Translations under genes and position numbers: made by a program
The notes under the pieces: generated by a model
The model's input: the letters and a program-made list of their open reading frames with translations, nothing else
What the model was told of the DNA's origin: nothing
The model's database searches: none
Assembly: GCA_965364895.1 (NCBI GenBank)
Contig: CBDTZL010000003.1
Location: forward strand, 1-34,262
Reading direction: 5' to 3'
Origin: an uncultured bacterium
Lineage (GTDB): Bacteria; Chloroflexota; Anaerolineae; Anaerolineales; E44-bin32
Length of the DNA: 34,262 nucleotides
Shown: positions 2,312-28,920 of the stretch, in pieces
Layout of the letters: every line of letters begins with the position of its first letter
Position numbering within the stretch: the first letter of the stretch is position 1

Positions 2312-2611
2312 TCAGGGGTCACCTGTCGCGGCAGTTCCACGCACATTAAAGCTGGTCAAGGAATCCACGGGTTCATCCCAATCTACTTCGATGCTGTCAA
2401 CCTTTGCGGCGGGCGGGCCGTTCTGGGACCATTCCAGAACCTGCTCGATGCCTGCCTTCTCGCCTTCGAAGACCGCCTCCACTCTACCGTCCGCAAGATT
2501 GCGCACCCAGCCTCTCAGTCCGTGCTTGAGCGCTTCATGGTATGTGAAATAACGGAAGCTAACCCCTTGCACGCTTCCAGAGATATATGCGTGTGCTCGA
2601 CTGTCAGCCAT
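2312..2611 (-). CDS. acyP: Acylphosphatase
   Basis: SGSVQGVSFR and GWVRNLADGRVEAVFEG, GPPAAKV signatures. 30 bp downstream of nuoN with a GGGGAGGG RBS. Confidence 0.93.
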   Translation of the reverse strand: MADSRAHAYISGSVQGVSFRYFTYHEALKHGLRGWVRNLADGRVEAVFEGEKAGIEQVLEWSQNGPPAAKVDSIEVDWDEPVDSLTSFNVRGTAATGDP

Positions 2612-2641: not shown

Positions 2642-4081
2642 TTACGGGGCTATGAACCCCGCGTTCCCCGCCAGGATCAAGATTGGGCCCGGCAGTACTC
2701 CGAGAAGAATGGTTGCCAGGGCCGTCAAGCCTACCGTGCGATTCAGCCAACCTTCAGATCGAGTCTCGGGCTCTCCAGATCGCATGTACATCATCACCAC
2801 TACCCTCAGGTAATAGTACGCGGAAACCAGGGAGGTCACAACGCCGACGAGCGCCAAACCGATCAATCCGGCCTCAATCGTCACGCTGAAGACCAGAAAC
2901 TTGCCAATAAATCCTACCGTCGGTGGGACTCCGATGAGCGACAGCATGAAGATCGCCATCGCGAGCGCAAGCGCCGGGCGGCGCCGCCCAAGGCCAGCGT
3001 AATCTTCAATCAACAACCCACGGCCCTCCGATCGCTCCAGCGTAAGGACTACCGCCCAGGCTCCCAGATTTGAGAATAGGTAGGCGAACAGGTAGAACAA
3101 GGCCGCGCTCACGGCCTTATCGGCAACGCGGGGATCGGATGCCGCAGCAAGGGCCATCAGCAGATAACCAGCATGCGCGATGCTTGAGTACGCGAGCATG
3201 CGCTTGATATTGGTTTGAGCGATCGCAGCCACATTGCCCCAAATCATTGTTGCAGCAGAGACCGCAACCACGACCGGGCCCCAGGCCTGCGCAAGTCCTG
3301 GTAATGCGGCAATGAATATCCGTAAGAGCGCTGCAAAGCCCGCTACTTTTGCTCCGACCGACATGAATGCCACCGCGGCCGATGGGGCGCCCTCATAAAC
3401 GTCTGGCGTCCACATGTGGAATGGAACCGCGGCGACTTTAAATCCCAGACCTACCAGAAGCATGGGCACCGCGATGATCAGTAAGGTCAGATCGGCCTGG
3501 TCGCCGCCAATCGATTGCGCAACGCCGGCCATGTTTGTGGTTCCTGTGGCTCCGAAGATAAGTGCGATTCCGTACACCAGAAAGGCGGACGAGAAGGCGC
3601 CCAGGATGAAGTACTTCATCGCCGCTTCTTCCGAGCCCTTTTCAGGGCGCGCAAAACCTGACATGACGTAAAGCGGCAGCGAGAGCAGCTCGATGGCTAG
3701 GAAGACCAGAATGAGATCTCCAGCCAGGCTCATCAGCAGCATTCCTGCCACAGTGAACAGCATGAGCGCGTAGTACTCTCCACGCTCCATGTGCATCCGG
3801 CGGAGATAGTCGTAGGCCACTGCAATACCCAACAGTGCGGTCGCCAATATTACGATCTGCAGGAAATCGGAGAAGCTGTCGGCCACGATCATCCCATCGA
3901 AGGCGACCTGCTCGCTGCCAAATCGCATGATCACCACGACCAGCGCAAGGGTCACGCCTACCGCACTTAAGATCGCAACGATGCCCTTGTTGGAAACAAA
4001 CAGGTCGACCATGAGCAACACGATCGCCCAAATGGAGATGATCAGAAAAGGAAGCGCGGGGAGCAGGTCGGAGGTGCTCAC
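2642..4081 (-). CDS. nuoN: NADH-quinone oxidoreductase subunit N
   Basis: EAAMKYFILG, FKVAAVPFHMWTPDVYEGAP, KRMLAYSSIAHAGY. Confidence 0.97.
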   Translation of the reverse strand: MSTSDLLPALPFLIISIWAIVLLMVDLFVSNKGIVAILSAVGVTLALVVVIMRFGSEQVAFDGMIVADSFSDFLQIVILATALLGIAVAYDYLRRMHMERGEYYALMLFTVAGMLLMSLAGDLILVFLAIELLSLPLYVMSGFARPEKGSEEAAMKYFILGAFSSAFLVYGIALIFGATGTTNMAGVAQSIGGDQADLTLLIIAVPMLLVGLGFKVAAVPFHMWTPDVYEGAPSAAVAFMSVGAKVAGFAALLRIFIAALPGLAQAWGPVVVAVSAATMIWGNVAAIAQTNIKRMLAYSSIAHAGYLLMALAAASDPRVADKAVSAALFYLFAYLFSNLGAWAVVLTLERSEGRGLLIEDYAGLGRRRPALALAMAIFMLSLIGVPPTVGFIGKFLVFSVTIEAGLIGLALVGVVTSLVSAYYYLRVVVMMYMRSGEPETRSEGWLNRTVGLTALATILLGVLPGPILILAGNAGFIAP

Positions 4082-5580
4082 GGCATCGCGATGGCTGCGG
4101 TGTGCACCAATTCCACTAGTTTCTCGACTGAAGCTTCGGTCAGCCCAAAGAAAGGCTTCGGGTAAAGTCCAATCCAGAATATCAAGATCACGATTGGTAC
4201 CAACGTCAGCAGCTCTCTCCGACTGACGTCCGGGAGATGCTTATTCTTGTCGTTGTCCAGTGGCCCCAAGAAAAGTTTCTGAAACATGTAGAGCAGATAG
4301 ACCGCAGTCAGGATAATGCCGGTCGCGGCGAACACCGTGAACCACACAGAGCCAATCGCAATGGACCCCCACGACCCGACCAGTATGGTGAACTCGCCTA
4401 CAAAGCCGTTCAGCCCGGGAAGGCCCATGGAGGAAAGCGTTACGATCAACGTCAGCCCAGCAAGAACTGGCATTACCTTCCACAGGCCACCAAAGGCATT
4501 CAGTTCCCGCGTATGGCGCCGTTCGTAGATGATCCCGACAATCAAAAAGAGTGCTCCTGTGCTCAAACCATGATTGATCATTTGCAGGATGCCGCCCTGC
4601 AAACCCTGAAGATTGAGCGCAAACAATCCCAGCATGACAAATCCGAGGTGGCTCACCGATGAGTAAGCCACTAATTTCTTAAGATCTTTTTGCGCGTATG
4701 ACACGGCCGCGCCATAGATGATCCCGATCACCGCAAGCAGTGCCACCCATGGCGCCAGTTGGATAGAAGCATCCGGAAACATTCCCAGGTTAAAACGCAG
4801 GAATCCATAGGTACCCATTTTCAGTAGCACGCCGGCAAGGATCACAGAGCCTGCGGTCGGAGCCTCCACGTGGGCATCCGGCAACCAGGAGTGCAGCGGC
4901 CACATCGGCACCTTGATTGCGAACGCTGCAGCAAATGCCAAGAATAGCCAGAACTGCGCGTTGGCCGGAATCGCCTGCGCTTCGATCAAATCTGGGACCG
5001 CAAACGTTCCGGCATCCAGCCCAAGCCAGATGATAGCCAAAAGCATGAAAATCGAACCCGCCATGGTGTAGAGGAAGAATTTGACGGCGGCATACATCCG
5101 GTTTTCCCCGCCCCAAACGCCGATCAAGAAATACATCGGTACCAGCGTAAATTCCCAGAAAATGTAGAAAAGAAATAAGTCCATGCCGAGGAAGACGCCC
5201 ACCATGCCAATTTCGAGCAGCAGGAAAAAGATCATGAATTCCCGCACTCGATCCTGAATGGCGTTCCAGGTAGAGATAATGGCCAGAACGGTGAGGAAGG
5301 TTGTGAGCAGAACCAGCAGTATGCTGAGCCCGTCCACGCCGAGGAAGTACTCGATGTGCAGATCGCCGATGCTGAACCAAGGCACTCTAACAACCATCTG
5401 TAGATCCGGATCGCTTGGGTCAAACGCTGCCAGCATCACCAATGAAAGCCCAAAGGTGACAATAGCCGTGATAAGCGCAGTCCAGCGTATGGTCGATTCC
5501 TTCTCCTTACGAAGGAACAACATGACGACAACGCCTACCAGTGGAGAAAATGTTACGAGGGTGAGGGTCCAAGCTTCCAT
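4078..5580 (-). CDS. nuoM: NADH-quinone oxidoreductase subunit M
   Basis: FYIFWE, AIKVPMWPLHSWLPDAHVEAPT, LKMGTYG, AYSSVSH, GLPGLNGFVGEF. Confidence 0.97.
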   Translation of the reverse strand: MEAWTLTLVTFSPLVGVVVMLFLRKEKESTIRWTALITAIVTFGLSLVMLAAFDPSDPDLQMVVRVPWFSIGDLHIEYFLGVDGLSILLVLLTTFLTVLAIISTWNAIQDRVREFMIFFLLLEIGMVGVFLGMDLFLFYIFWEFTLVPMYFLIGVWGGENRMYAAVKFFLYTMAGSIFMLLAIIWLGLDAGTFAVPDLIEAQAIPANAQFWLFLAFAAAFAIKVPMWPLHSWLPDAHVEAPTAGSVILAGVLLKMGTYGFLRFNLGMFPDASIQLAPWVALLAVIGIIYGAAVSYAQKDLKKLVAYSSVSHLGFVMLGLFALNLQGLQGGILQMINHGLSTGALFLIVGIIYERRHTRELNAFGGLWKVMPVLAGLTLIVTLSSMGLPGLNGFVGEFTILVGSWGSIAIGSVWFTVFAATGIILTAVYLLYMFQKLFLGPLDNDKNKHLPDVSRRELLTLVPIVILIFWIGLYPKPFFGLTEASVEKLVELVHTAAIAMP

Positions 5581-5596: not shown

Positions 5597-7642
5597 CTAG
5601 CGCAACAGTAAGTAGCTCACTACAAGCACCAATCCTATGAGCACTGCGATGGCGTAGTTGCGCACATACCCCGTCTGCAACGTCGCCAGCCCGCCGGCAC
5701 CTCTGCGCGTGAGCGCTCCCATGCCATCAAATCCGCGGTCGATGATTCCAAGATCAAATGCACGCGCTAGCCAATTCGTGCCTCTTACGAAGTATTGAGC
5801 GATCACGGTATCGTGCACCCAATCGTGCAAAAATCGCTCGTCAACCACTTCGGCAAGCCAGCGCGTGAGCGAGATATATCGTCTAACGATCAGCCAGTCA
5901 TAAAATTCATCAACCCACCAGCGGGCGCTGATCGCGGTCCATACCGGACCCAGCTTCGATTGCAGAGGATCCTTTCCGCCCGACTTTATTGGGGGGCGGC
6001 CGTAAACGAGCCAGGCCAGTCCAATAGAGACCAGTGCCAGAATGGTGGTGAAGATCGCGATCGCAGCAATGAATTCCGGTTCGTGAATTCCCTCCAATGT
6101 GTCTTCGAGGAAGTGTGTAAGCGGGAGCAGGCCAGGTCCATTGATGAGGCCCCCGCCCACCGCCAGAATTGCCAGCGCCACCAGCGGAGCCACCATAACG
6201 CTCGGACTTTCCTTTGCCGCTTCCGCAGCCTTCGAGCGTGGTTCGCCGAAGAAGACCATGATTATCTGGCGAGCCATATAAAAAGCTGTCAGGAAGGCGG
6301 AGATCACCAACACCCAGTAGACCACCGGGCTCACCAGGGAGGCATCGGCAAGGATTTCGTCTTTTGAGAAAAAGCCAGCAAGCGGCGGAATTCCAACTAG
6401 CGCCAGCGCGCCGACGAGATACACCCAGAAGGTGGCCTTCATCCGCGTTCGCAGGCCTCCCATGTTGCGCATGTCATTCGGATTGAAATCGTCGTTGTGA
6501 GAGTCAGCATGGTGATGGCCATGCTCCACTCCCTGGATCACAGAACCAGCCGAGAGAAACAGCAGCGCCTTGAAAAAGGCATGCGCCACGAGATGGAAGA
6601 TAGCAGCTACGTAAGCCCCAATACCCACCGCGGCAATCATGAAACCTAATTGACTGATGGTGGAATAGGCGAGCACGCGCTTGATGTCAAATCTGGCTAC
6701 TGCAATGGTGGCTGCAAAGAGCGCGGTAGCGGCACCAACAATGGCAATAATGTCTGGAGTTATCGTGGCCAACTCGAGTAGTACCGCATTGCGTACGAGC
6801 ATATAGATGCCGGCGGTCACCATGGTGGCGGCATGGATGAGGGCCGAGACCGGTGTCGGACCGGCCATCGCATCTGGCAGCCAGACGAAGAGTGGGATTT
6901 GGGCTGACTTGCCGGCCGCCCCAACAAACAGAAAGAAAGTGATGGCCGTAGCCGCGGTGGCGGCTGCAGGCCCCATGAAGAGCGCTTCGTGAAATACCTC
7001 CTCGAAGGTCAGGGTGCCAAAGAACCAGAACGTGATGAGCATGGCGATAATGAATCCGAAGTCGCCAATGCGATTAACGACGAAGGCCTTCTTACCCGCC
7101 AACGCATTCCCGATCCCGTCCTTGCCCTTTTCGTACCAGAAGCTGATCAGCAGGTAGGAGCACAAGCCGACGCCTTCCCAGCCGACGAACATCGTGAGGT
7201 AGCTGTTGCCGGTGACCAGTAGCAGCATGGCCGCCATGAAGAGGCCAAAGTAGACGAAAAACCGCGGGTAACGTGACGGATCACCCTGAAAGCGGACATC
7301 ATCGTGCATGTAGCCGGTGGCATAGATATGAATCAGTCCCCCTACACCGGTGACCATCAACAGCATGGTGACGGACAAGGTGTCGATTTGGAGAGCCCAC
7401 TCGACCTCAAGCTGTCCGACGACGATCCACTCTGCGATGTGAACCGTGCTGCCTTCGGGTTGCATCCCCAGCGCTATCAGCTGGAGAAGAGCAACCACAA
7501 ACGCCAGTCCAACCGCCGCGCTGGCTACAATCCCCACCCCACGCTCTCCGATGCGGCGGCCGACGATCAGGTTGATCAACAACCCCAGAAGCGGGAAGAT
7601 GATCAACAGCGGGGCCAGGCTGAACAGGGTTTCTGCGGTCAT
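5597..7642 (-). CDS. nuoL: NADH-quinone oxidoreductase subunit L (lateral helix extended)
   Basis: [62 protein letters not shown]-terminal QTGY. Confidence 0.97.
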
Positions 7643-7950
7643 CCTTTGAGATCGCTCACCAAATCGACGTCGATGCTGCTCCGGTTACGGTAAATGGAAA
7701 CAATCAGCGCCAGGCCGACCGCTACCTCAGCCGCTGCGACCGCAATAACAAAAAATACGAACACCTGGCCTCCGAGAACACCCCTGGATCGCGCAAAACC
7801 AACGAAAGCCAGGTTAGCGGCATTCAACATGAGTTCCACTGACATAAACATCACAATGGCGTTTCGCCGAATCAGCACACCCAGAGCCCCAAGCGTGAAC
7901 AATACGCCGGAGAGAACAAGGATGTGGGTCATTGAAACTCCAGGGATCAT
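7639..7950 (-). CDS. nuoK: NADH-quinone oxidoreductase subunit K
   Basis: [30 protein letters not shown]. Confidence 0.97.
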
Positions 7951-8459
7951 GTCGTACGCTCCCAGCGCGTCAGGACAATCGCACCAACCATAGCGGCCAA
8001 CAGCAGCAGCGAAGTTACCTCGAAAGGGATCAGATATTCGTTGAACAGCAATGTTCCGACACTGGCCGGGCTGCCAAACCCCTCCGCGATTTCAGCGAAC
8101 TCACCGGCCGGATCGGCGGGCAAAACAAAGGCCACGACAATGAATTGAATGATGAGCGCATAGCTAAGCACGAGCGCCGCCGCAAATTGCCAGCGGTGGC
8201 TTGGAGTAGATTCGACGTTCTCCGTTCCCAACAGCATGATCACGAATATGAATAGCACCATGATGGCGCCTGCATAGACCGCCACCTGCACCATGGCAAT
8301 AAAGGGCGCGGATAGGAGCAGGTAGAGCACGGCCACCGTCAGGAATACAATCACCAGGAAAAGCGCGGAATACACCGCATTGCGGCTGATGAGCATCGCA
8401 ATAGAAGCGGAAATTGCTACGGCAGCCAGACTCAGAAAGATTGCGAGTTCAATAGTCAT
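7947..8459 (-). CDS. nuoJ: NADH-quinone oxidoreductase subunit J
   Basis: [46 protein letters not shown]. Confidence 0.96.
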
Positions 8460-8462
8460 TCG

Positions 8463-8966
8463 TTACTGCGGATCGTCCATTTCTGGAATGGCACGATCAA
8501 ATTCACCTGGCGTGGTTTTCATCGGAGTCGGCTGGCCCGCCTCCGGCACAGGTACGAGCAACATGTCACGGGTGTAGATCGCATCTCGACGATTGGTGTA
8601 CGAGAGCTCATAGTTGTGTTCGAGCACGATGGCCTCTGTCGGGCAGGCGTCTTCGCAATACCCGCAGAAGATGCAGCGCATCATGTTGATCTCATAGGTG
8701 CTGGCGTAGCGTTCCCCAGGAGAATACCGATCCGCATCGGTGTTCTCCGCCGATTCCACGAAGATGGCGTCCGCCGGGCAGGCGGCTTCGCACAGTGAGC
8801 AGCCGATGCACTTCTCCAAGCCGTTGTCGTAGCGCTTTAGTTCGTGTCTCCCCTTGAAGCGCTCCCGCACCGGGCGCTTGATCTCAGGATATTGGTAGGT
8901 CACCGGGCGCTCAAACATCATAGATAGCGTGGTGGCTAATCCGCGCAAGATCTCGAGCGGTTTCAT
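8463..8966 (-). CDS. nuoI: NADH-quinone oxidoreductase subunit I
   Basis: Two CxxCxxCxxxCP motifs (CIGCSLCEAACP, CIFCGYCEDACP). Start set at ATG 8966, overlapping the nuoH stop (ATGA). Confidence 0.96.
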   Translation of the reverse strand: MKPLEILRGLATTLSMMFERPVTYQYPEIKRPVRERFKGRHELKRYDNGLEKCIGCSLCEAACPADAIFVESAENTDADRYSPGERYASTYEINMMRCIFCGYCEDACPTEAIVLEHNYELSYTNRRDAIYTRDMLLVPVPEAGQPTPMKTTPGEFDRAIPEMDDPQ

Positions 8967-9976
8967 AGGTCCAACACCACGATGAGTCCGCCCGTGATGA
9001 CGATATTGAGCAGCGCCACCGGCAGCAAGACCTTCCAACCGAAGGCCATCAGGCGGTCATAACGAAGCCGCGGCAGGGTAGCCCGAATCCAAATCATGAA
9101 GAAAAGTATCACGACCACCTTTAAGAAGAGATATAACGGGCCCAGCAGCCCGATGCGATCCACAAAGGGCCCCCAATAGCCTCCGAGGAATAGGGTGGCG
9201 GCGATGAAGCTGATTGCGATCATCTTTCCATACTCGGCCATAAAAAAGAGCGCAAATTTCATTCCCGAATATTCGGTGTGGTAGCCGGCGGTCAGCTCCT
9301 GCTCCGCTTCCGGCATGTCGAACGGCGCTCGATTGACTTCAGCAACGGCCGCGATCATGAAAATGAGGAACCCGATAGGCTGCAGGACTGCGTACCAGAG
9401 GCCTTGCTGATCGGCCACAATTTTGGCCACGCTCATCGATCCGGCGAGCATGATCGGGCCGACGATAGCCAGCCCCAGCGCAAGCTCATAGCTGATCATT
9501 TGGGCTGAGGCGCGCAACCCTCCTAGCAGCGAGTACTTGCTGTAGGAAGACCAGCCGGCGATGACGATGCCATAGACCGCGATCGAGGCGATCGCAAAGA
9601 TATAGAGAATGCCCACATCGATCTCGGCTGCTAACCCCAAGCTGATCTCCTGCCCGAAGATTACGACGTCCGGACCCAGGGGAACCACCGCCAGGAGCAG
9701 CAGCACGGGTACCACCGTAATGATGGGAGCCAAGATGAAGAGCACTTTGTCGGCTCGATCTGGTATCAGCTCCTCCTTGAACATGAGTTTGATCCCATCA
9801 GCAATGGGCTGCAGAATGCCCGCTGGGCCAGCCCGATTAGGGCCGATGCGGGCTTGCATCCGGGCCAGCGCGCGTCGCTCGAACAGCGTCAAGTAAGCAA
9901 ACCCGCCCAGAATGATGTTGATGAGCACAAAGGATTTGATGGACCATTCGATCAGGCTGCCCAATTCGATTGTCAT
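8963..9976 (-). CDS. nuoH: NADH-quinone oxidoreductase subunit H
   Basis: ERRALARMQARIGPNRAG, QPIADGIKL, SYE, NRAPFDMPEAEQEL, EYSGMKFA, PRLRYD. Confidence 0.97.
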   Translation of the reverse strand: MTIELGSLIEWSIKSFVLINIILGGFAYLTLFERRALARMQARIGPNRAGPAGILQPIADGIKLMFKEELIPDRADKVLFILAPIITVVPVLLLLAVVPLGPDVVIFGQEISLGLAAEIDVGILYIFAIASIAVYGIVIAGWSSYSKYSLLGGLRASAQMISYELALGLAIVGPIMLAGSMSVAKIVADQQGLWYAVLQPIGFLIFMIAAVAEVNRAPFDMPEAEQELTAGYHTEYSGMKFALFFMAEYGKMIAISFIAATLFLGGYWGPFVDRIGLLGPLYLFLKVVVILFFMIWIRATLPRLRYDRLMAFGWKVLLPVALLNIVITGGLIVVLDL

Positions 9977-12459
9977 TCTGGGCGCCTCACCGTTACAGAA
10001 GTTGGCTCCGAGAGAGGAAGGCTGCGAGGAACCAGCGCAGAGCCAATCGGTACGTCGGAGTTCGCTATAAATTTCAGCCGCTCTACGCGTCCATCCCAGA
10101 CAATCTCTGCCTCCCCCACATCTGTGAGGCCGAGCCGCTCAATTTCATGGGGATGTAATGCCATTTGCAGCTGAGCAACGCGCGCCTCCTGCAATTTGGA
10201 ATCTCGCAACGCGCTGCCACGGTCATACAGTTTGGTTACCGGGACAATCAGCAAGTCCTTCTTAGCGCCCGCCCGGGGAGGTGCCTTCCATTTCAAGGGG
10301 CGTCCGGCGCCGCGCGGCGCAAGCTGAACCCCCAACCCCTGTTTGTTTGCATATGCCGTTCCACCGAAGTAGAGATCCTCTCCCCCAACCTCGGGCCACT
10401 GAGGTTCTACTGCGGCCAGAGTATCGTAGCTAAGCTCGGAGTAGTCACGGACCTCGTCTGCAATACGTTCAAAAACCAGCGGAGCCGCCGTGCCTTCAAG
10501 ATCGAGTTCCAGTCGTTTGGCCAGGTCCGCCACAATCTTCCAATCCGGAAGGCTCCCAATGGGCTCGACCACTGCAGGATACAGACGCTGAACTCTGCGT
10601 TCGCCGTTGGTGAATGTGCCTGCCCGCTCTACGAAAGACTGCGCAGGCAAGACCACGTCTGCTAGCTCCGCCGTGGCGGTAAGGAATAAATCTTGAACGA
10701 TGAGCATCGGGAGCTTATCGAGTAGAGCTGCCGCTTCCGGCTCGGCGGTCGCAGGGTCGGCCCCTACGATATAGGCCGCCTTGGCTCCATCGAGAGCGTT
10801 GGTCAGCCCTCGTGAGTCCGGTCGGAAGCCCATGTCCCACGCGCCCTGTGTATTAGCGTGCGGCCAGACCCCCACGAGCCCGTTTTTGGCCTGACCGAGG
10901 CGACCTTTGGATTCGATCAACAGTGCGCAGGATCTCGCCAGGGCCTGGGTTCCAGAATAATTCAATCCCTCGCGTCCGAAGAATACGATGGCGTTCCTTG
11001 CGCGTTTGAAGGCCCTGGCCGCCGACTTTAGTTCTTTGTCCCCCTCAAAACGGTTGAGTTTCCGATCTTCACCGTTGAATTGCAGGAGCCCCAGCGCGGT
11101 ATGCACCGCCTGTCCCGATTCATAGCGCAGGCTGTGTTGAGCGTATTCGTCGAGGCGGGTTGCGCGGGCATTTGCAACGATTACAGTGGCACCCCGCTCC
11201 GCGGCTTGTTTAAGGCGCAGCCACCAGATAGGGGCTTCTTCATGCAGATCAGCGGCGATGACGAGCACCGCATCTCGCTTTCCCAACTCTCCGAGGTTAG
11301 TTCCCTGGCCGACTCCATATCGCTGTGTGAGATCGCCTCCCGCCATCGATTCCGAGAGCACGGCTTTGCCACCGATCTCTTTCATCAAGCCGCTCAGGTT
11401 GAATAGATCCTCGTTCATCAGGCGGCCGCTCGCGATTCCGATCGAATGCGACCCGGCCTTCTTCAATCCTTCCGCGGCCATCTTCAGAGCTACGTTCCAT
11501 GAAGCCTTGACCAGCTTCCCATTCTTGCGAATGAGCGGCTTCGTCAATCGCTCCGGGCTCTGGGCGTAGTGGTGAGCAAAGCGGCCCTTGTCACATATCC
11601 AGATCTCGTTCACCTGCTCGTTTTGCCTCGGCATGACTCGCTTGACGACATCCCGTCCGCCTCTGCTCGCCTCGCGGCGTGTGCTCAGTGTCAGATTGCA
11701 TCCCACCGGGCAATGCGGGCAGATGGAGGCTGCCGAATTGAGCTCCCATGGACGGGCTCCAAATCGGAAGTCGGCGGTGGTCAATGCGCCCACCGGGCAT
11801 ATATCGGTAGTATTTCCGGAGAAATAAGAGTCGAATCCGGGATCCGAATAGGTCACAATTTCGAGCCGACGCCCCCGCTCATAGAACCCGATCACCGGAT
11901 CATCAACAATCTCGTCCTGGAAACGGGTGCATCGAGCGCATTGGATACATCGCTCGCGATCAAGGAAGATCAGCTCCCCTAGAGGGTGGCGCTTGGCGAG
12001 ACGGATCTTGTCATCAAAAAGAAACCGGCTTTTGCCCGGCCCGTGCTCCATCGTGAGATTTTGCAGCGGGCACTCGCCGCCCTTGTCGCAAACTGGGCAA
12101 TCGAGCGGGTGGGAGGTGAGCAAGTATTCGACAATTTCGTTGCGCCCTTGAATCGCCTTCTCGCTCGCGACCCGCACTTGCCAACCCTCGCCGACCGGAA
12201 CCGTGCAGGCGGTCTCGAGGTTGGGTCCAAACTGAATCACTGGATTGCCAGATTCGTCGAGAAGCGGTTTGCCCGTGGCGCGATCGCGACCTGGGCGCCC
12301 GATTTCAACCAGGCATACCCGGCACATGCCGACCGGCTCCATCTTGGGGTGGTAGCAGAACACTGGAACGTCGGTGCCTTGCCGCTTGGCGGCATCCACC
12401 AGCAGCGTACCTTCCGGTACGGTCACTTGGTTGCCGTCTATGGTGAGGGTGACACTCAT
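9973..12459 (-). CDS. nuoG: NADH-quinone oxidoreductase subunit G
   Basis: PVFCYHP...GMCRVC, HPLDCPVCDKGGEC, RCIQCARC...DICPVGAL, and N7 ligands CPHCPVGC...WICDKGRF. Confidence 0.96.
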   Translation of the reverse strand: MSVTLTIDGNQVTVPEGTLLVDAAKRQGTDVPVFCYHPKMEPVGMCRVCLVEIGRPGRDRATGKPLLDESGNPVIQFGPNLETACTVPVGEGWQVRVASEKAIQGRNEIVEYLLTSHPLDCPVCDKGGECPLQNLTMEHGPGKSRFLFDDKIRLAKRHPLGELIFLDRERCIQCARCTRFQDEIVDDPVIGFYERGRRLEIVTYSDPGFDSYFSGNTTDICPVGALTTADFRFGARPWELNSAASICPHCPVGCNLTLSTRREASRGGRDVVKRVMPRQNEQVNEIWICDKGRFAHHYAQSPERLTKPLIRKNGKLVKASWNVALKMAAEGLKKAGSHSIGIASGRLMNEDLFNLSGLMKEIGGKAVLSESMAGGDLTQRYGVGQGTNLGELGKRDAVLVIAADLHEEAPIWWLRLKQAAERGATVIVANARATRLDEYAQHSLRYESGQAVHTALGLLQFNGEDRKLNRFEGDKELKSAARAFKRARNAIVFFGREGLNYSGTQALARSCALLIESKGRLGQAKNGLVGVWPHANTQGAWDMGFRPDSRGLTNALDGAKAAYIVGADPATAEPEAAALLDKLPMLIVQDLFLTATAELADVVLPAQSFVERAGTFTNGERRVQRLYPAVVEPIGSLPDWKIVADLAKRLELDLEGTAAPLVFERIADEVRDYSELSYDTLAAVEPQWPEVGGEDLYFGGTAYANKQGLGVQLAPRGAGRPLKWKAPPRAGAKKDLLIVPVTKLYDRGSALRDSKLQEARVAQLQMALHPHEIERLGLTDVGEAEIVWDGRVERLKFIANSDVPIGSALVPRSLPLSEPTSVTVRRPE

Positions 12460-13724
12460 GCGGCTTTGCTCGAATCATTCACGACATGCAGCTCGAACTC
12501 CGGCCGGAACCGTTCCACAGCCGAGGTGACCGCCAGGGCGGCAAAATCTCCTAGCGCACACAGGCACTTGCCTTGAATTCCGATTCCCACATTATGCAAG
12601 AGGTCGATCTCGTGCGGCTGTGCCGTCTCGTCCATTAGTCGGTCGAAGATGTGTTTCATCCAATAGGTCCCGTCGCGGCAAGGCGTACATTTGCCGCACG
12701 ATTCATGCTCAAAGAAGTCTGTGATTTTGGACTCCACCCAGGCGATATCTACCGTCTCATCGATCACGATGATCGAAGCAGATCCCAGCGATGAACCGAC
12801 CTCGGGAACCGATTCGTAGTCCATTTTGGTATCCAAAACCTCATCGGTCGCGCGCAGGATCGGGGCCGAGGCGCCAGCTGGCAAGATAGCTTTGATCGCT
12901 TCGCCGTTCGGGATACCTCCCGCATGTTCGTAGATCAGCTCTCGAAACGTTGTTCCGAGCGGCAATTCATAGTTGCCCGGACGTTCAACATTGCCAGACA
13001 CGGAAAACACCTTTGTTCCGGCGCTCTTTTCGGTTCCGATGCTGCTGTACCACTTGGCGCCGCGGCTGATAATGGGCGGCAGATTGGCGAGCGTTTCGAC
13101 GTTGTTCACTACAGTGGGCTTAGCGAAGAGGCCCTCCGCGGCTGGAAACGGCGGGCGCAGCCGTGGCTGACCCAGCTTGCCTTCCAGGGATTCCAGCAGC
13201 GCGGTTTCTTCGCCACAGATGTAGGCTCCAGCTCCCAGATGTGTGAACATCTCCAATGAGTACTTGCTGCCGAAGAGCTTCTTTCCTAGCAGTCCACGCT
13301 CATGCAGCTCCTCGATTTTGGCATCTAGCTCTTGTGTCAAATCCCAGAATTCGCCGCGGCAATAAATGTAGGCCATATTGGCTTGCGCGGCATAGGCACA
13401 GATCGCCACGCCCTCCAGGAACTGGAAAGGATTGCGCTCCATGATCTCGCGATCCTTGAAGGTGCCGGGTTCTGACTCATCGGCGTTGGCGACGACGTAG
13501 CGAGGAAAGACATCGGGCGTGAGGAAGCTCCATTTGACTCCGGTAGGAAATCCAGCGCCCCCTCGGCCCCGAAGCCCGGACTTCTTCACGAGATTAATCA
13601 CTTGCTGCGGCGACTTCTTCCTGACAATCGATTCGAATGCCTTATAGCCGCCGTTCTCGATATAGGTGTCGAGCCGGTCGAGACCCTCTATGTCTCGATG
13701 TCTCAATACGACGTGTTCAGTCAA
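12456..13724 (-). CDS. nuoF: NADH-quinone oxidoreductase subunit F
   Basis: GLRGRGGAGFPTG, NADESEPGTFKDR, GAGAYICGEETAL, ESCGKCTPCRDG...CLCALGD. Confidence 0.97.
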   Translation of the reverse strand: MTEHVVLRHRDIEGLDRLDTYIENGGYKAFESIVRKKSPQQVINLVKKSGLRGRGGAGFPTGVKWSFLTPDVFPRYVVANADESEPGTFKDREIMERNPFQFLEGVAICAYAAQANMAYIYCRGEFWDLTQELDAKIEELHERGLLGKKLFGSKYSLEMFTHLGAGAYICGEETALLESLEGKLGQPRLRPPFPAAEGLFAKPTVVNNVETLANLPPIISRGAKWYSSIGTEKSAGTKVFSVSGNVERPGNYELPLGTTFRELIYEHAGGIPNGEAIKAILPAGASAPILRATDEVLDTKMDYESVPEVGSSLGSASIIVIDETVDIAWVESKITDFFEHESCGKCTPCRDGTYWMKHIFDRLMDETAQPHEIDLLHNVGIGIQGKCLCALGDFAALAVTSAVERFRPEFELHVVNDSSKAA

Positions 13725-14217
13725 CTTGACCCTTTACCCTCAGCGCCTCGATGAATGCAAGCGCAGAGCCCACCGATTGATCCTCGTGATAGTGAATCCC
13801 ATTGGGCTCCTGCAGTTGAAATATCGGAGCCCGATCGCATGCGGCCAGGCATTTCACTTCTTCAACGGTGACTTGTCCGTCCGGAGTGGTTGCTCCCATC
13901 CTGATATCCAGCTTGTCACACAGCTCATCTGCGAATGCCTGCGCGCCTCGAAGGGCGCATGGCAAATCGGTGCACACTTGAATGCGGTATTTGCCACCTT
14001 CCCGATCGTGATACAGGGTGTAGAAGCCCACCAACGAGGCGACCTCCGTAGACTCGAGGCCAAGCAAATCACCGACCTCGGTAATAACTTCGGGACTCAG
14101 CAAGCCATATTCTCGCTGTGCGAGGAACAAGAGCGGCATAACGGCAGATCGCTTCTGATCGGGCGGATACTTTGCCAGAATGCCTTCGATCTCTTGAGCG
14201 TTATTTTCTTTCAGCAC
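13717..14217 (-). CDS. nuoE: NADH-quinone oxidoreductase subunit E
   Basis: RSAVMPLL, FYTLY, VCTDLPC...KCLAACDRAP 2Fe-2S ligands. GTG start. Confidence 0.96.
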   Translation of the reverse strand: MLKENNAQEIEGILAKYPPDQKRSAVMPLLFLAQREYGLLSPEVITEVGDLLGLESTEVASLVGFYTLYHDREGGKYRIQVCTDLPCALRGAQAFADELCDKLDIRMGATTPDGQVTVEEVKCLAACDRAPIFQLQEPNGIHYHEDQSVGSALAFIEALRVKGQVD

Positions 14218-14221
14218 GTCA

Positions 14222-15454
14222 TTACCGATCTACATCGCCGAGTATGGGATCCAGGCTGCTGATGATGGCGATCAGATCTGCAACCAGGTGTCCTTTGGCC
14301 AGCATGGGAAGCGCCTGCAAATTGGCAAAGCTGGGGGTGCGAAAATGTACTCGCTGCGGCATAGGTCCTCCGTCTCCCACGAGATAGCAGCCTAGAACGC
14401 CCCTAGGAGACTCAACCGGAAAATAGACCGCACCCTTTGGAGCCGAAAAGCCCTCTGTCCACAATTTGAAGTGGTGGATGACGGCTTCCATGCTGTGCCC
14501 TAACTCCGATCGCGGCGGAGGAACGAATTTGCGGTTATCGCTGCGGAAGGGTCCTTCCGGCAGCTGGACCAGCGCTTGCTGCACGATCCTAAGCGATTGC
14601 CGCATTTCTTCCATTCGAACCACATACCGATCGTAGGTATCGCCATTGGAGGCGGTCGGTACCTCGAAGTCAAACTGTTCGTAGCCGCTGTACGGTCGCG
14701 TCTTTCGTAGATCAAAGGGCATTCCGGTAGCTCTCAAGTTTGGCCCGGTAAGGCCAATCTCCAACGCCTCCGAGGTGGAAATAACCCCGATCCCTTTCGT
14801 GCGATCGATATAGAGAGGATTCTCCGTCAGCAGGTTTTCATACTCCTCGATCCGAGCGGGAAAGAGGTCGATGAAATGCTGGACCGCTTCTTCGAAGCCG
14901 TTTGGCAGATCGCGCCAAAGTCCACCCGGCCGGAAATAGGAAGTCATCATCCGTTGTCCGGAACACAACTCAAAGATGTCCATCAGAATTTCTCGCTCGC
15001 GCCATGTGTACAGAAATACCGACATGGCTGCCAGATCGAGCGCGTGTGTCCCCAACCACACGAGGTGGGAAGCGATTCTTGTCAGCTCTGTCAGCAGGAC
15101 GCGCACCATTTGAGCACGAGGTGGGACATCCAGCTCGACCAGCGTTTCAATCGCCAGGCAATAGCAGAGATTGTTGCCCAGATTGTTCAGATAGTCCATG
15201 CGGTCGGTCATGACCAGCGCTTTTTCATACGTTTTGGCTTCCATATTCTTTTCGATGCCCGTATGAAGGAAGCCGATGTCTGGCACACAGTTGACAACGG
15301 TCTCACCGTCCAACTCGAGAAGTAGCCGCAGCACGCCGTGCGTACTGGGATGCTGAGGCCCCATATTCAGGATCATCGTCTCGCCATCGATGGCACGCTG
15401 CGAAACCAGCCCCTTAAGTTCATCAACCGTTACTTCCATTTGCGCTTCAAGCAT
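14222..15454 (-). CDS. nuoD: NADH-quinone oxidoreductase subunit D
   Basis: NMGPQHPSTHGVLR, HTGIEK, DRMDY, RPGG, ESPRG, C-terminal GDVDR. Confidence 0.97.
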   Translation of the reverse strand: MLEAQMEVTVDELKGLVSQRAIDGETMILNMGPQHPSTHGVLRLLLELDGETVVNCVPDIGFLHTGIEKNMEAKTYEKALVMTDRMDYLNNLGNNLCYCLAIETLVELDVPPRAQMVRVLLTELTRIASHLVWLGTHALDLAAMSVFLYTWREREILMDIFELCSGQRMMTSYFRPGGLWRDLPNGFEEAVQHFIDLFPARIEEYENLLTENPLYIDRTKGIGVISTSEALEIGLTGPNLRATGMPFDLRKTRPYSGYEQFDFEVPTASNGDTYDRYVVRMEEMRQSLRIVQQALVQLPEGPFRSDNRKFVPPPRSELGHSMEAVIHHFKLWTEGFSAPKGAVYFPVESPRGVLGCYLVGDGGPMPQRVHFRTPSFANLQALPMLAKGHLVADLIAIISSLDPILGDVDR

Positions 15455-15467
15455 CTGCGTTCTTCAA

Positions 15468-15524
15468 TCAGTCCTTTGCGTACTTGTTCCGTCGGTCGAT
15501 TTCGTCAAAGTTGAAGGTGAACTG
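15468..15524 (-). repeat. Diverged direct copy of the last 57 bp of nuoC, including the stop
   Basis: 52/57 identical to 15553-15609. Encodes [18 protein letters not shown] versus nuo[19 protein letters not shown]. Confidence 0.95.
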
Positions 15525-15552
15525 CTTGTAGCTCACCCTTCTTGGCTCCAAT

Positions 15553-16065
15553 TTAATCTTTTGCGTACTTCTTCCGTCGGTCGATTTCGTCGAAGTTGAA
15601 GGTGAACTGAACCTCTTCGTATCCGAGTGGATAGTCCCTGCGCAGCGGATGACCTTCCCAATCATGCGGCATGATGATGCGCCGTAGATCGGAGCTTCCG
15701 ACGAAGTCAATACCGAACATGTCGAAGACCTCCCGCTCATGCCAATTTGCATTGGGATAAATGGCCTCGATGCTCGGAATTTTCGGATCTTCACCATCCA
15801 GGAAAACACTGAGGCCGAGCAGCACATCAGATTTTATCGAATAGAGCTGATAGACGATCTCAAATCGAGGCTCTTCGGGCCAGTGATCCGCGGCGGTCAG
15901 GGCGATCAACAGATCGAAGTCGCGCTTCCTTAAGAACTTACAAGCATCAACGACGGCTTCGGGTTGGAGGACGGCGGTGAATTGATCGCGGAACTCAAAT
16001 GAGTCGAGAACTCGATCATCAAGTTCCTTTTGCAGCGCGTCCAGAGAGGCTTTTGCGCTGCTCAA
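15553..16065 (-). CDS. nuoC: NADH-quinone oxidoreductase subunit C
   Basis: [33 protein letters not shown]. Start uncertain; TTG 16065 chosen because it overlaps the nuoB stop (TTGA). Confidence 0.94.
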
Positions 16066-16535
16066 GCCAATTTCTCGGCCATTACTTTGTCGTGAAGGGT
16101 GAGGATCCCATGGATGAGCCCTTCGGGGCGAGGAGGGCACCCGGCGATATAGACATCTACCGGCATGATTTCGTCTACGCCAGGCACGATCGCGTAATTA
16201 TTGAAGATCCCCCCACACGAGCAGCAATCTCCCATTGCGATGACCCACTTAGGCTCAGGCATCTGATCGTAGAGTCGCCGCAACACGGGGGCCATCTTGC
16301 GTGATACCCGACCGGCCACGATCAGCAAATCACTTTGCCGCGGACTGGCGCGCATGAGCTCCATACCAAATCGGCTCAGGTCGTAGTCTGGAGCCTGAGC
16401 AGCCATCATCTCGATGGCGCAGCATGCGAGCCCAGAGAGCAGCGGCCACATGGCTCGCGTTCGGCTCCACCCTACGGCCTTTTCCAACGAGGTGGTCACG
16501 ATGCCCATATTGCCGAGCTTGCTCTCTATTCCCAT
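16062..16535 (-). CDS. nuoB: NADH-quinone oxidoreductase subunit B
   Basis: [44 protein letters not shown]. Confidence 0.97.
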
Positions 16536-16882
16536 TCGAGCGCCCCCTTCTTCCAGGCGTAGATCAAGCCGAACGCCAGGATCACAATAAAGACCACCAT
16601 CTCGATCAATCCGACCACCCCGAGATCCCTGAAAACGACCGCCCAGGGGAGTAGGAATACGATTTCAATGTCAAAGAGGATGAAAAGCACCGCAATGAGA
16701 TAAAAGTGGACCGGCATTCGACGTTGACCGGATCCATAAGGAATCATGCCCGATTCGTAGGGCTGACCCTTTCTTCGGTTCTTCTTGCGAGGCCCGAGCA
16801 GGTGTCCGAGCGCGACAATTGAGACAGCGATGCCCACCGAGAAGATGATAAGTACAGCGATGGGGAGGTAGTCGATCGGCAT
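16526..16882 (-). CDS. nuoA: NADH-quinone oxidoreductase subunit A
   Basis: [30 protein letters not shown]. Confidence 0.97.
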
Positions 16883-25911: not shown

Positions 25912-28900
25912 TTAAAAATCTTCCAGCTTAGAAAGATCCGCCACACCCTCGGCAAGCCGTACCACCCGCTGCAGCAAGCCCAAGCGGTTTTCTCGCAGCG
26001 ACTGATCCTCCGCCATGACCATGACTTCCTCAAAGAAGCGATCGATGGTCGGGAGTACTGGCTCGAACGCGGTGAGAAACCCATCCACCGAACCTGGCTC
26101 TCGATCCGCGTTTTCAGCTGTCTGCAGCGCTTCATACAGATCGCGAGTCGATGTCTCCTCGAGCTTTTTATCGTCGAATGGATAGACCTGCTCAAGATCG
26201 CGGGTAATTCGAGCGCAACGAGAGTAGGCCTGCAGCATTGCAATCCAGCTTTCGCGTGAGATCCACTGCTTCAGCTCGTCGGCCGCCCTTGCCGCGCGTA
26301 CAGGATCGCTTCCCTGTTCTTCTAGCACCGCCGCCACAACATCGTGCGCAAAGCCTTGATCCAGCAAGAGCTGCTGCTGGCGTCGAACGATAAAGGCCAA
26401 GCAGTTGTTGAGCGCCTCGGCCTCTCCTTTACGATCATAGCCATCCCATGCCCAGGAAAGGGCCGCATTCAGATCGAGGCTGAGGTCCTTCCCGACCAGT
26501 ATTTGCACCAATCCCACGGCGCTTCGGCGCAGCCCAAATGGATCCCGCGTGCCTGTAGGTTGGATCCCAACTGAAAAGAGACCTATCAGAGAATCCAATC
26601 GATCTGCCAAACCGAGTGCGGTTCCTGGATCGGCGGTGGGCAATTCATCGCCCGAAGCCCGCGGGAGATAGTGCTCGAAGATCGCCTGTGCCACGCTCTC
26701 CGTCTCGCCTGATTTCTCGGCATAGTACCTCCCCATGGCTCCTTGCAAAGAGGTCATGTCCACCACCATCAAGGTAGCCAAATCTGCCTTGCACAGCTGA
26801 GCTGCGCGGACTGCGGATTGTCCATCCTTCTCGGAAAGGTTGAAGTGGCCAGCCAGCGTCGCGGTCAGCCCTTCCAGCCGGTGAGTTTTGTCCAGCATGG
26901 ACCCGAGGTCCGTTTGAAACGTCAACTTGTCGAGCTTGCTGACAAAGCCTTCAAGCGATTGCTCCAGATCGCGAGCTACAAAGTATTTGGCATCCGCAAA
27001 ACGGGCTCGGATGACCTGTTCGTTCCCTCTGATTACAGCCTCCGTCGAGTCGCGACGGCCATTCGACACTACGATGAAATTCGGAAGCAAACGATCCTTC
27101 GACTCAACTGGGAAGTAGCGCTGATGCTTTTTCATTACCGCGATAAGCACGTCAGACGGGAGATCCAGATAGTCCTCATCATAGGTCCCCAGCAGCGCCT
27201 GAGGCGCCTCGACCAGATTCGCAACCTCCTGAAGTAAATCGGCATCATGTGAAACGTTGCCAGAGACTTCGTTGGACAGCTCCCCGATCTGATTCTGGAT
27301 TTCTGAACGCCTGAGCTCCGGATCGGTGATGATTTCTTGCGATTCAAGCATTTCCAAAAATGAGTTCGCATCATGAATCTTGAGCTCCGGCTTGCCTGCG
27401 CCTCGCAGACCACGCCCGGATCGGCCGCTCTGCAGGCCGGCATACTCGAAGGATACGAGGTGCTCACCGTGTAGGGCGAGCAGCCAGCGGATTGGCCGGG
27501 AAAAAGTCGTGCCCGAGCTTTCCCAGCGCATGGACTTGTCAAACCGCAGTCCGGCGATCACTCGTGGGAGCGCTTCAGAGAGTACGTGCCGGGCTGGGCC
27601 AGTACCTTCGCTAACCTGCGCCACTGCATAGATGCCGCCATCCATTTCTTGTTTTTCCAATGCTTCGACCTCAACGCCTGCGCTGCTCGCAAAACCGGTG
27701 CCAGCTGGAGTCGGCTTGCCATCAGTGTCAAATGCCTTGTCCCACGGCGGCCCCTTGACAAGGCGCTCGCTGCCTGACTGTTGAGGCGCAAGATCCTCTA
27801 CCAGCGCAATCAGGCGGCGGGGCGTACCGATGATCCGAATCGGACCGTGCTCGAGGGGGGCCTCGGTGAGCATGGCCTCGATCGAACTCTCGAGTTGCTC
27901 CAATGCGGACGTCAGGTCTGAATCCGGAAGTTCCTCCGTACCTATCTCCAGCAGGAATGTCGCTGGCTGGTCCGGCCCAGAATCCGCATCGGCGGCAACG
28001 CTCGCGGGCCGATCGTTACTGGAACTCGCATTGCTTTCTTCAGAAGACTCCGATTCCAACCAGGGAAACCCAGCTTGTTCTCGTTCCTGCAGATATGATT
28101 CGGCGATCTGGCGCGAAATACGACGCATTCTTCCGAAGTAACTGGCTCTCTCGGTCACGCCAACTGCGCCACGTGTGTCTAACACGTTGAAGGTATGCGA
28201 GCACTTCAATAGCTGGTCATACGCAGGCAGCGTTAGGCCGGCCTCGAGGGCACGTACGGCCTCCGCCTCGTATCCGTCAAACATCTGGCGGAGCTGCGCT
28301 ACGTCGGCCAGTTCAAAATAGTATTTGCTGTGCTGCTGCTCGGCCGCCAAGTTGAGGTCCCCGTAGGTTCTCCGATCGTCCCAGCGGATATCGCCAAAGT
28401 GGGTTACACCTTGAATGGCCATGAGGATTCGCTCCAGGCCATAAGTCAACTCTACTGAGACCGGATCCAGAATCTGGCTGCCAGCCTGCTGGAAGTAGGT
28501 AAACTGGGTAATCTCGAGGCCATCCAACCAAACCTCCCAGCCGAGCCCCCAGGCGCCCAAGGCAGGTTGCTCCCAGTTGTCTTCCACAAATCGAATGTCG
28601 TGCTGCAGTCGATCGATGCCGAGCGCCTCGAGTGACTGAAGATACAGTTCCTGTGGATCGCCGGGCTCCGGCTTGAGGATCACCTGGTACTGGTAGTGGA
28701 GGCCCATCCGATTTGGATTCTCTCCATAGCGGGCATCATCTGGTCGGACAGAGGGTTCGACATACGCGACCCGCCAAGGCTCTGGGCCCAGGACGCGCAA
28801 AAAAGTTGCCGGGTTCATTGTGCCGGCTCCGACCTGGAGGTAGTAGGGCTCCCAAATAAGACAGCCCTGGTCGGCCCAAAAACGGTCGAGTGCGAAAATT

Positions 28901-28920
28901 GCTTCTTGAAAAGTCAGCAT
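25912..28920 (-). CDS. glyQS: Glycine-tRNA ligase, fused alpha+beta subunits
   Basis: Alpha: [42 protein letters not shown]. Ser-rich linker. Beta: [42 protein letters not shown]. Confidence 0.96.

Follow-up and report, generated by a model that had tools for sequence, protein, structure and literature searches.

A complete nuo operon with a single nuoM

The stretch of DNA analysed here, hereafter the window, comprises 34,262 nucleotides of contig CBDTZL010000003.1 from the metagenome-assembled genome (MAG) of an uncultured member of the Anaerolineales (GCA_965364895.1; 325 contigs, 84 % complete). It carries a complete 14-gene nuoA-N operon of the NADH type on the minus strand, in which nuoA to nuoK are contiguous, nuoC and nuoD are separate, nuoE, nuoF and nuoG are all present and nuoM occurs once. 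Each of the open reading frames for nuoK, J, I, H, G, F, E, D, C, B and A (7639..16882, minus strand) was assigned by Pfam matches (PF00420, PF00499, Fer4 families, PF00146, NuoG domains, PF01512, PF01257, PF00346, PF00329, PF01058 and PF00507). The remaining three genes, likewise on the minus strand, encode the antiporter-like subunits, namely nuoL (5597..7642; 681 aa; PF00662, 1.5e-19, and PF00361, 1.3e-75), located between nuoK and nuoM, the sole nuoM of the operon (4078..5580; 500 aa; PF00361, 2.1e-81) and nuoN (2642..4081; 479 aa; PF00361, 2.7e-71). The L-M-N order, the single nuoM and the full NuoEFG module given in a preliminary description of this DNA, which had been made from the letters alone, were all recovered by the Pfam matches across the operon.

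The nuoL product has the features of NuoL/ND5, that is, the Proton_antipo_N and Proton_antipo_M domains followed at the C-terminus by TM15, a long amphipathic lateral helix (HL) and TM16. Its best solved relative is the Paracoccus NuoL (8qby_L, E 1.5e-121), and no Chloroflexota protein was among the solved chains found in the search with the window NuoL. Residues 371-395 (about 6457-6531) form a His- and Asp-rich loop ([25 protein letters not shown]) that is ~13 residues longer than in the aligned Paracoccus, Mycobacterium and Thermus NuoL chains.

Thirty bases downstream of nuoN, on the same strand, lies a 99-aa open reading frame (2312-2611, minus strand) that we considered as an extra complex I subunit and rejected, given that it encodes a soluble acylphosphatase (PF00708, 1.9e-27) and follows nuoN at no more than 9 of the 38 related loci, each of them in the window's own subclade. 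Elsewhere in the window (25912-28920, minus strand), the alpha and beta subunits of glycyl-tRNA synthetase are fused in one 1002-aa open reading frame (PF02091 + PF02092).

Anatomy of the lateral helix

The HL lies like a strap along the antiporter-like subunits of complex I, with TM16 as its anchor. Judging from the alignments, the canonical HL consists of two segments of ~26 residues each: segment A, which extends from a conserved Asp (E. coli D542) past the L/M boundary (P552), and segment B, which extends from the NuoM-touching kink to TM16. According to the passages on the helix in PMC3274701, the kink of the E. coli HL (P564-N566) contacts NuoM and P552, in segment A, lies between L and M; insertions of 6-7 residues were tolerated at several sites of the helix, and an insertion at P552, within segment A, impaired pumping.

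In the window NuoL, the WWVDEFY motif starts at residue 575 (codon start 5920) and QTGY at residue 656 (ending at 5666). The distance of 81 residues between W575 and Q656 reported in the preliminary description was reproduced by translation and by the positions of the motifs, and its figure of about 50 residues for E. coli NuoL compares with the 48 that we measured in the annotated MG1655 protein; canonical orthologues have 52-53. Thus, between the conserved Trp and the Gln/Glu that precedes TM16, the window NuoL is 29 residues longer than its canonical orthologues and 33 residues longer than the E. coli protein. In a MAFFT alignment of 65 NuoL sequences, the surplus forms one clean block between ...FL and A..FDL.VIDG, which measures 29 residues, or 33-34 in three variants, and which is present in 25 of the 65 rows and absent from the remaining rows. 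An alignment had been named at the outset as a place where the claim of a net insertion might fail; instead it returned this block.

The helix of the window NuoL can therefore be divided as follows. Segment A (residues 575-601; 5840..5920, minus strand) scores 37.6 bits with the segment-A HMM and contains D578 and R588, which align with E. coli D542 and P552, respectively (E. coli numbering as in the helix passages of PMC3274701). The inserted segment, designated A' (residues 602-630; 5753..5839, minus strand), is described below as a tandem copy of A. Segment B (residues 631-656; 5675..5752, minus strand) opens with a D-x-x-V-I-D-G-x-x-N-G kink motif and ends at Q656, the equivalent of E. coli E587; the segment-B HMM gave a single match above noise on the window NuoL (31.8 bits), two further domains scoring below 0 bits. 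The TM16 anchor helix follows (residues 657-680; 5603..5674, minus strand), with Y659 corresponding to E. coli Y590, the start of TM16 in the same numbering. D630, D635 and Q656 are nearly invariant in the alignment, and the motifs of segment B and TM16 are conserved.

Origin and conservation of the inserted segment

The internal repeat noticed in the preliminary description, [13 protein letters not shown] at residue 595 and [12 protein letters not shown] at residue 624, corresponds to two WLA motifs spaced exactly 29 residues apart, and it was substantiated by profile-profile comparison. Aligned with hhalign, A' matched A with a probability of 90.7 % and an E-value of 1.2e-6 over 28 ungapped columns at an offset of exactly 29, whereas four control pairs (A' vs B, A' vs TM15, A' vs TM16 and A vs B) yielded probabilities of 0.1-0.8 % and E-values of 0.068-0.56. 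When the inserts alone were scored with an HMM of the canonical segment A, the signal was weak (median 2.7 bits, reached by 21 of 1000 shuffles): 5 of the 24 scored inserts (25 searched) did better than every one of 1000 shuffles, and that of the window itself came out at 0.0 bits. It is the profile-profile test, not the scoring of isolated inserts, on which we base the claim that A' is a copy of A. In a phmmer alignment, the start of the Paracoccus helix was placed on the second copy, A', of the window NuoL. The two copies are only 32 % identical, so that A' is not a recent DNA repeat.

Among 22 orthologues, the mean pairwise identity is 47.7 % for A', 52.2 % for A and 45.3 % for B, and the best conserved stretch of the entire helix is a D-W-R-F-W-H-D-W-F-H-D core in the first half of A'. 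This conservation extends across orthologues of only 51-67 % overall identity. By these comparisons, A' is a tandem duplication of segment A, giving the arrangement A-A'-B, and is as conserved as its neighbours and under constraint.

Distribution and history of the insertion

A scan of one genome per species yielded 80 loci, the closest of which come from Anaerolineales and Anaerolineae MAGs. Among 39 orthologous Anaerolineae NuoL rows, 25 contain A' and 14 lack it, and none of the 39 loci has two nuoM genes; at one of them (L017), two M fragments overlap inside a single 1.5-kb gene space. Database proteins that share the C-terminus of the window NuoL numbered 108, including 90 with the identical 81-residue span, and those with an organism name are all assigned to Chloroflexi, Anaerolineae or Anaerolineales. 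Furthermore, of 301 genomes sampled from the order, at least 149 carry A' (matches collinear over 115-121 of the 121 query residues), a count that takes in the window's own genome and the unpublished genome G270.

A tree of NuoL only requires three changes of state. A better resolved tree, from 30 rows and 2197 columns of concatenated H, J, K, M, N and L minus its HL, unites the two larger canonical groups in one clade (SH-aLRT 99) that is nested among lengthened clades (SH-aLRT 99-100); here two changes suffice, a gain after a basal canonical lineage and a single clean loss. The canonical state, also seen in every outgroup, is basal. On this phylogeny, A' was gained once and cleanly lost once, with no change of the gene set at the loss; the nesting of the canonical clade within the lengthened ones implies that the block was dropped while the accompanying genes stayed the same.

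As a route to the partner of A', we also tried the alignment columns that separate lengthened from canonical operons, of which there are 5 in M, 3 in N, 1 in K, 5 in J, 3 in H and 1 in L, against 0-1 in controls. No inference is drawn from them, because the two canonical groups form one clade and W90 of NuoJ also occurs in L042, one of the two basal canonical rows shown, so that the separating columns reflect shared ancestry.

A separate 2M enzyme in the same genome

The preliminary description had read the long helix as the signature of 2M complex I (Chadwick, Hemp, Fischer and Orphan 2018, ISME J 12:2668; here as presented in parts of PMC7117926, PMC9040806 and PMC6606698). In these enzymes, the HL of NuoL is quoted as lengthened by 26 residues in the presence of a fourth pump (PMC9040806), and the Chloroflexi 2M layout is described as one in which nuoL-M-M-N stands apart from nuoB, nuoI and a fused nuoCD (PMC7117926). 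The genome from which the window derives has such an enzyme elsewhere. One contig (C83; L102:3407-9837) encodes nuoL, with the 5' end cut by the contig end, followed by nuoM, nuoM, nuoN, ATP synthase a and a fused b-delta gene, and another (C82; L103:324-3508) encodes nuoB, a fused nuoCD (600-aa open reading frame, PF00329 + PF00346) and nuoI; together they have the layout quoted from PMC7117926, whereas the window operon does not. This MAG, which is 84 % complete, yielded no second copy of nuoA, H, J or K. A second nuoE/F/G-like set (C104:48-3203), with 36 %, 46 % and 29 % identity to the window E, F and G, respectively, lies apart from both nuo clusters.

The NuoL of this L-M-M-N cluster also has a span of ~80 residues, but it is reached by doubling segment B, as indicated by two matches to the segment-B HMM (12.5 and 12.0 bits). 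Of five further 2M-type NuoLs, one, from a relative (L101), showed two segment-B matches at i-E <= 1e-3 and the other four showed one; in those four, a VIDG-like motif can be seen twice by eye. A second B copy also accounts for the span of 77 residues in the NuoL of an acidobacterial nuoA-C-D-H-J-K-L-M-N cluster (L071:3929-13216), which has one nuoM and in which no EFG genes were seen. The latter is an independent case of a long strap with one nuoM, of the double-B type.

The window operon resembles 2M complex I in that its HL is lengthened by about one antiporter width and in that the same phylum, and indeed the same genome, carries a 2M enzyme. It differs from the 2M enzyme in having one nuoM, separate nuoC and nuoD and an EFG module; moreover, its insert copies A, sits ahead of the kink that contacts NuoM and comprises 29 residues, as opposed to the 26 quoted in PMC9040806. 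Since the window insertion copies A, whereas the C83, L101 and L071 NuoLs double B, it is not, as far as the segment assignments go, a 2M signature, and its origin is separate from that of the 2M insertion. What stands of the earlier reading is the net insertion of one module length, seen in the 65-NuoL alignment, in an operon with one nuoM and a full NuoEFG module; the 2M assignment does not. The same genome holds two kinds of strap: A-B'-B, accompanied by two nuoM, and A-A'-B, accompanied by one.

A further parallel is offered by Complex_I_1 and Complex_I_2 of Ca. Manganitrophaceae, for which the relevant part of Yu et al. (2022, PMC9040806) describes HL insertions with one nuoM per cluster, leaving open whether these accommodate an extra pump or mark an evolutionary transition. 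The window operon shares with them, as they are described there, an HL insertion next to a single nuoM. It belongs to a different phylum, its insertion has been traced to segment A and the gain and loss of this insertion have been mapped. Among the papers listed by our literature searches, we found none that describes the Anaerolineae insertion, although Chadwick et al. 2018 or Fig. S2 of PMC9040806 may already list insertions of the A type.

Predicted structure

An AlphaFold2 model of the window NuoL (64 sequences) has a mean pLDDT of 88.1 and, at the C-terminus, helices at residues 526-547, 574-628 and 633-680. A and A' form one unbroken predicted helix (574-628) with no hairpin, followed by a break at 629-632; confidence is ~85 before A', 72-78 over A' and 46-63 beyond it. 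In the control model of a canonical orthologue (L012), there is one 53-residue helix and then TM16. A' is accordingly predicted to be helical and continuous with A, which, at 1.5 Å for each of 29 residues, would make the rod between NuoL and the kink ~43 Å longer.

The core fold of the model matches solved complex I L chains with Z scores of ~50-52 over 545-584 residues at 38-42 % identity (Z 51-52 for the E. coli and Mycobacterium chains). The window NuoL has in common with the solved NuoL/ND5 proteins (E. coli 3rko/7z7r, Thermus 4he8, Mycobacterium 8e9g and Paracoccus 8qby) this core fold, the TM15-HL-TM16 succession, the Asp of segment A and the kink of segment B. An attempt to place TM16 by superposition of monomers (window residues 7-631 on E. 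coli 1-589) was dropped: the L012 control including TM16 superposed only at 12.7-12.8 Å rmsd, which shows that HL geometry in the monomer models is unreliable, and only their secondary structure was used.

Inventory of nuoM genes

The proposal that an additional NuoM might be encoded elsewhere holds in so far as the genome contains two more nuoM genes; both, however, belong to the complete L-M-M-N cluster with its own lengthened NuoL, and closed genomes of relatives have none to spare. In all 20 further A' genomes examined, and likewise in all five examined that lack A', there is a separate cluster in which two nuoM-like genes adjoin each other next to a long nuoL. Therefore, gene content does not change with the state of A', and the co-occurrence of a 2M cluster was rejected as a discriminator. 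At E <= 1e-30, exactly seven PF00361 genes were detected in 9 of the 15 A' genomes searched. Among the closed A' genomes, G103 and G181 have L-M-N, L-M-M-N and an Mrp-like pair, and G038 has L-M-N and L-M-M-N, with one more weak match in each of the three; none of them contains a spare nuoM. It follows that the only sources of a fourth antiporter-like subunit would be the operon's own NuoM, used a second time, or a borrowed M.

Two other arrangements were noted in the course of the survey. In a MAG labelled Anaerolinea (G005), a nuoJ-(K)-L group (L047:7141-9941) encodes a NuoL with A' and is followed by neither nuoM nor nuoN; the same genome carries an L-M-N set and an L-M-M-N set elsewhere. 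Three loci from Bacteroidota and Ignavibacteriota (L076, L077 and L089) have gaps of 1.2-1.8 kb between nuoM and nuoN and NuoLs of canonical length.

Possible readings: a longer brace or a hidden fourth pump

The sequence comparisons establish an old, constrained and clade-wide duplication of segment A in NuoL, unaccompanied by a dedicated extra gene. What lies under A' in the assembled complex is open to more than one reading. We favour, with a probability of about one half, a three-pump enzyme in which L, M and N are present once each and the strap has been lengthened in this lineage. Segment A would have been copied once within the HL of NuoL to give A-A'-B, and the surplus segment would serve as a longer brace, which might either shift B and TM16 one pseudo-repeat along the arm or bulge at its poorly conserved, Gly-rich middle. 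This reading draws on the unchanged gene set at the loss of A', on the lack of a spare gene and on the published long straps with one nuoM. If the three-pump enzyme, for us the likeliest of the readings, is correct, then A' would not be evidence of a fourth proton channel.

Several observations sit uneasily with a three-pump enzyme. The length of A', one segment or ~43 Å, is near the 26 residues quoted for four-pump enzymes in PMC9040806; the A-A' helix is predicted to be unbroken, albeit at moderate AlphaFold2 confidence; and, in the helix passages of PMC3274701, the E. coli insertion at P552 impaired pumping. That A' is as conserved as A and B would fit a specific protein partner better than a loose bulge, and the conservation of the B and TM16 motifs is most simply explained if these elements are still docked on M and N. 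A straight rod that is 43 Å longer permits the usual docking of B and TM16 only if something of one subunit's width is inserted.

A hidden fourth pump is an alternative that we regard as possible, though less likely. Here the NADH-type complex would insert either its own NuoM once more or an M of the 2M cluster as a subunit X between L and M; A would then cross the L/X boundary and A' the X/M boundary, B and TM16 would keep their usual sites on M and N, and the strap would act as a ruler for four antiporter-like subunits in an enzyme with five proton paths. Not only does the added length equal one segment, but A' copies exactly the segment that crosses a subunit boundary, is constrained as strongly as A and B, continues A in one predicted helix and leaves the B and TM16 motifs unchanged; a similar lengthening, by 26 residues, is quoted for true 2M enzymes (PMC9040806), and two further M subunits are on offer in every genome examined. 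However, no gene is dedicated to such a subunit: the only sets in the closed genomes are L-M-N and L-M-M-N, joined by an Mrp-like pair in G103 and G181. The 2M cluster is equipped with a lengthened NuoL of its own and is balanced in its genes, and A' was lost once with no change in gene content, the 2M cluster being present with and without it. No complex I is known to us in which the product of a single gene occupies two non-equivalent antiporter positions. The general form of the idea, in which the strap is a molecular ruler and the NADH-type complex I of most Anaerolineales incorporates its single NuoM twice, or else an M supplied by the 2M cluster, strikes us as a little more speculative still.

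The preliminary description had also offered a relic of 2M ancestry, that is, an operon that once had two nuoM and a 2M-type NuoL, lost one nuoM and kept a useless extension. We found no support for this scenario and consider it very improbable. The 2M-like length and the presence of 2M enzymes in the same lineage speak for it, but the insertion copies A, whereas the 2M-type NuoLs with two matches double B; two nuoM were seen at none of the 39 orthologous Anaerolineae loci, and the basal state, shared by all outgroups, is the canonical one. Nor does a useless extension agree with a block that is under constraint, conserved over orthologues that are 51-67 % identical and carried by no fewer than 149 of the 301 genomes sampled from the order. 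Finally, duplication of the stretch by misassembly or misannotation of a fragmented, 84 % complete MAG can be practically dismissed, because 90 of 108 database proteins have the identical 81-residue span, the same block recurs at 24 independent loci and in closed genomes, and the two copies are only 32 % identical.

Implications

HL length serves as a sequence hallmark of complex I with an extra pump, and hence of the H+/e- yield and of the capacity for reverse electron flow. If the ruler reading were true, the Anaerolineales would possess an NADH-driven five-proton complex I that is invisible to gene counting, and duplication of the strap, not of nuoM, would be the first step towards 2M enzymes. 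With two long straps in one genome that derive from different segments and accompany two nuoM and one nuoM, respectively, HL length alone does not predict the number of pumps, and the helix evolves by the copying and dropping of whole segments. The lengthened form is present in at least 149 of the 301 genomes sampled from a very abundant order, and the canonical sister clade provides a natural control.
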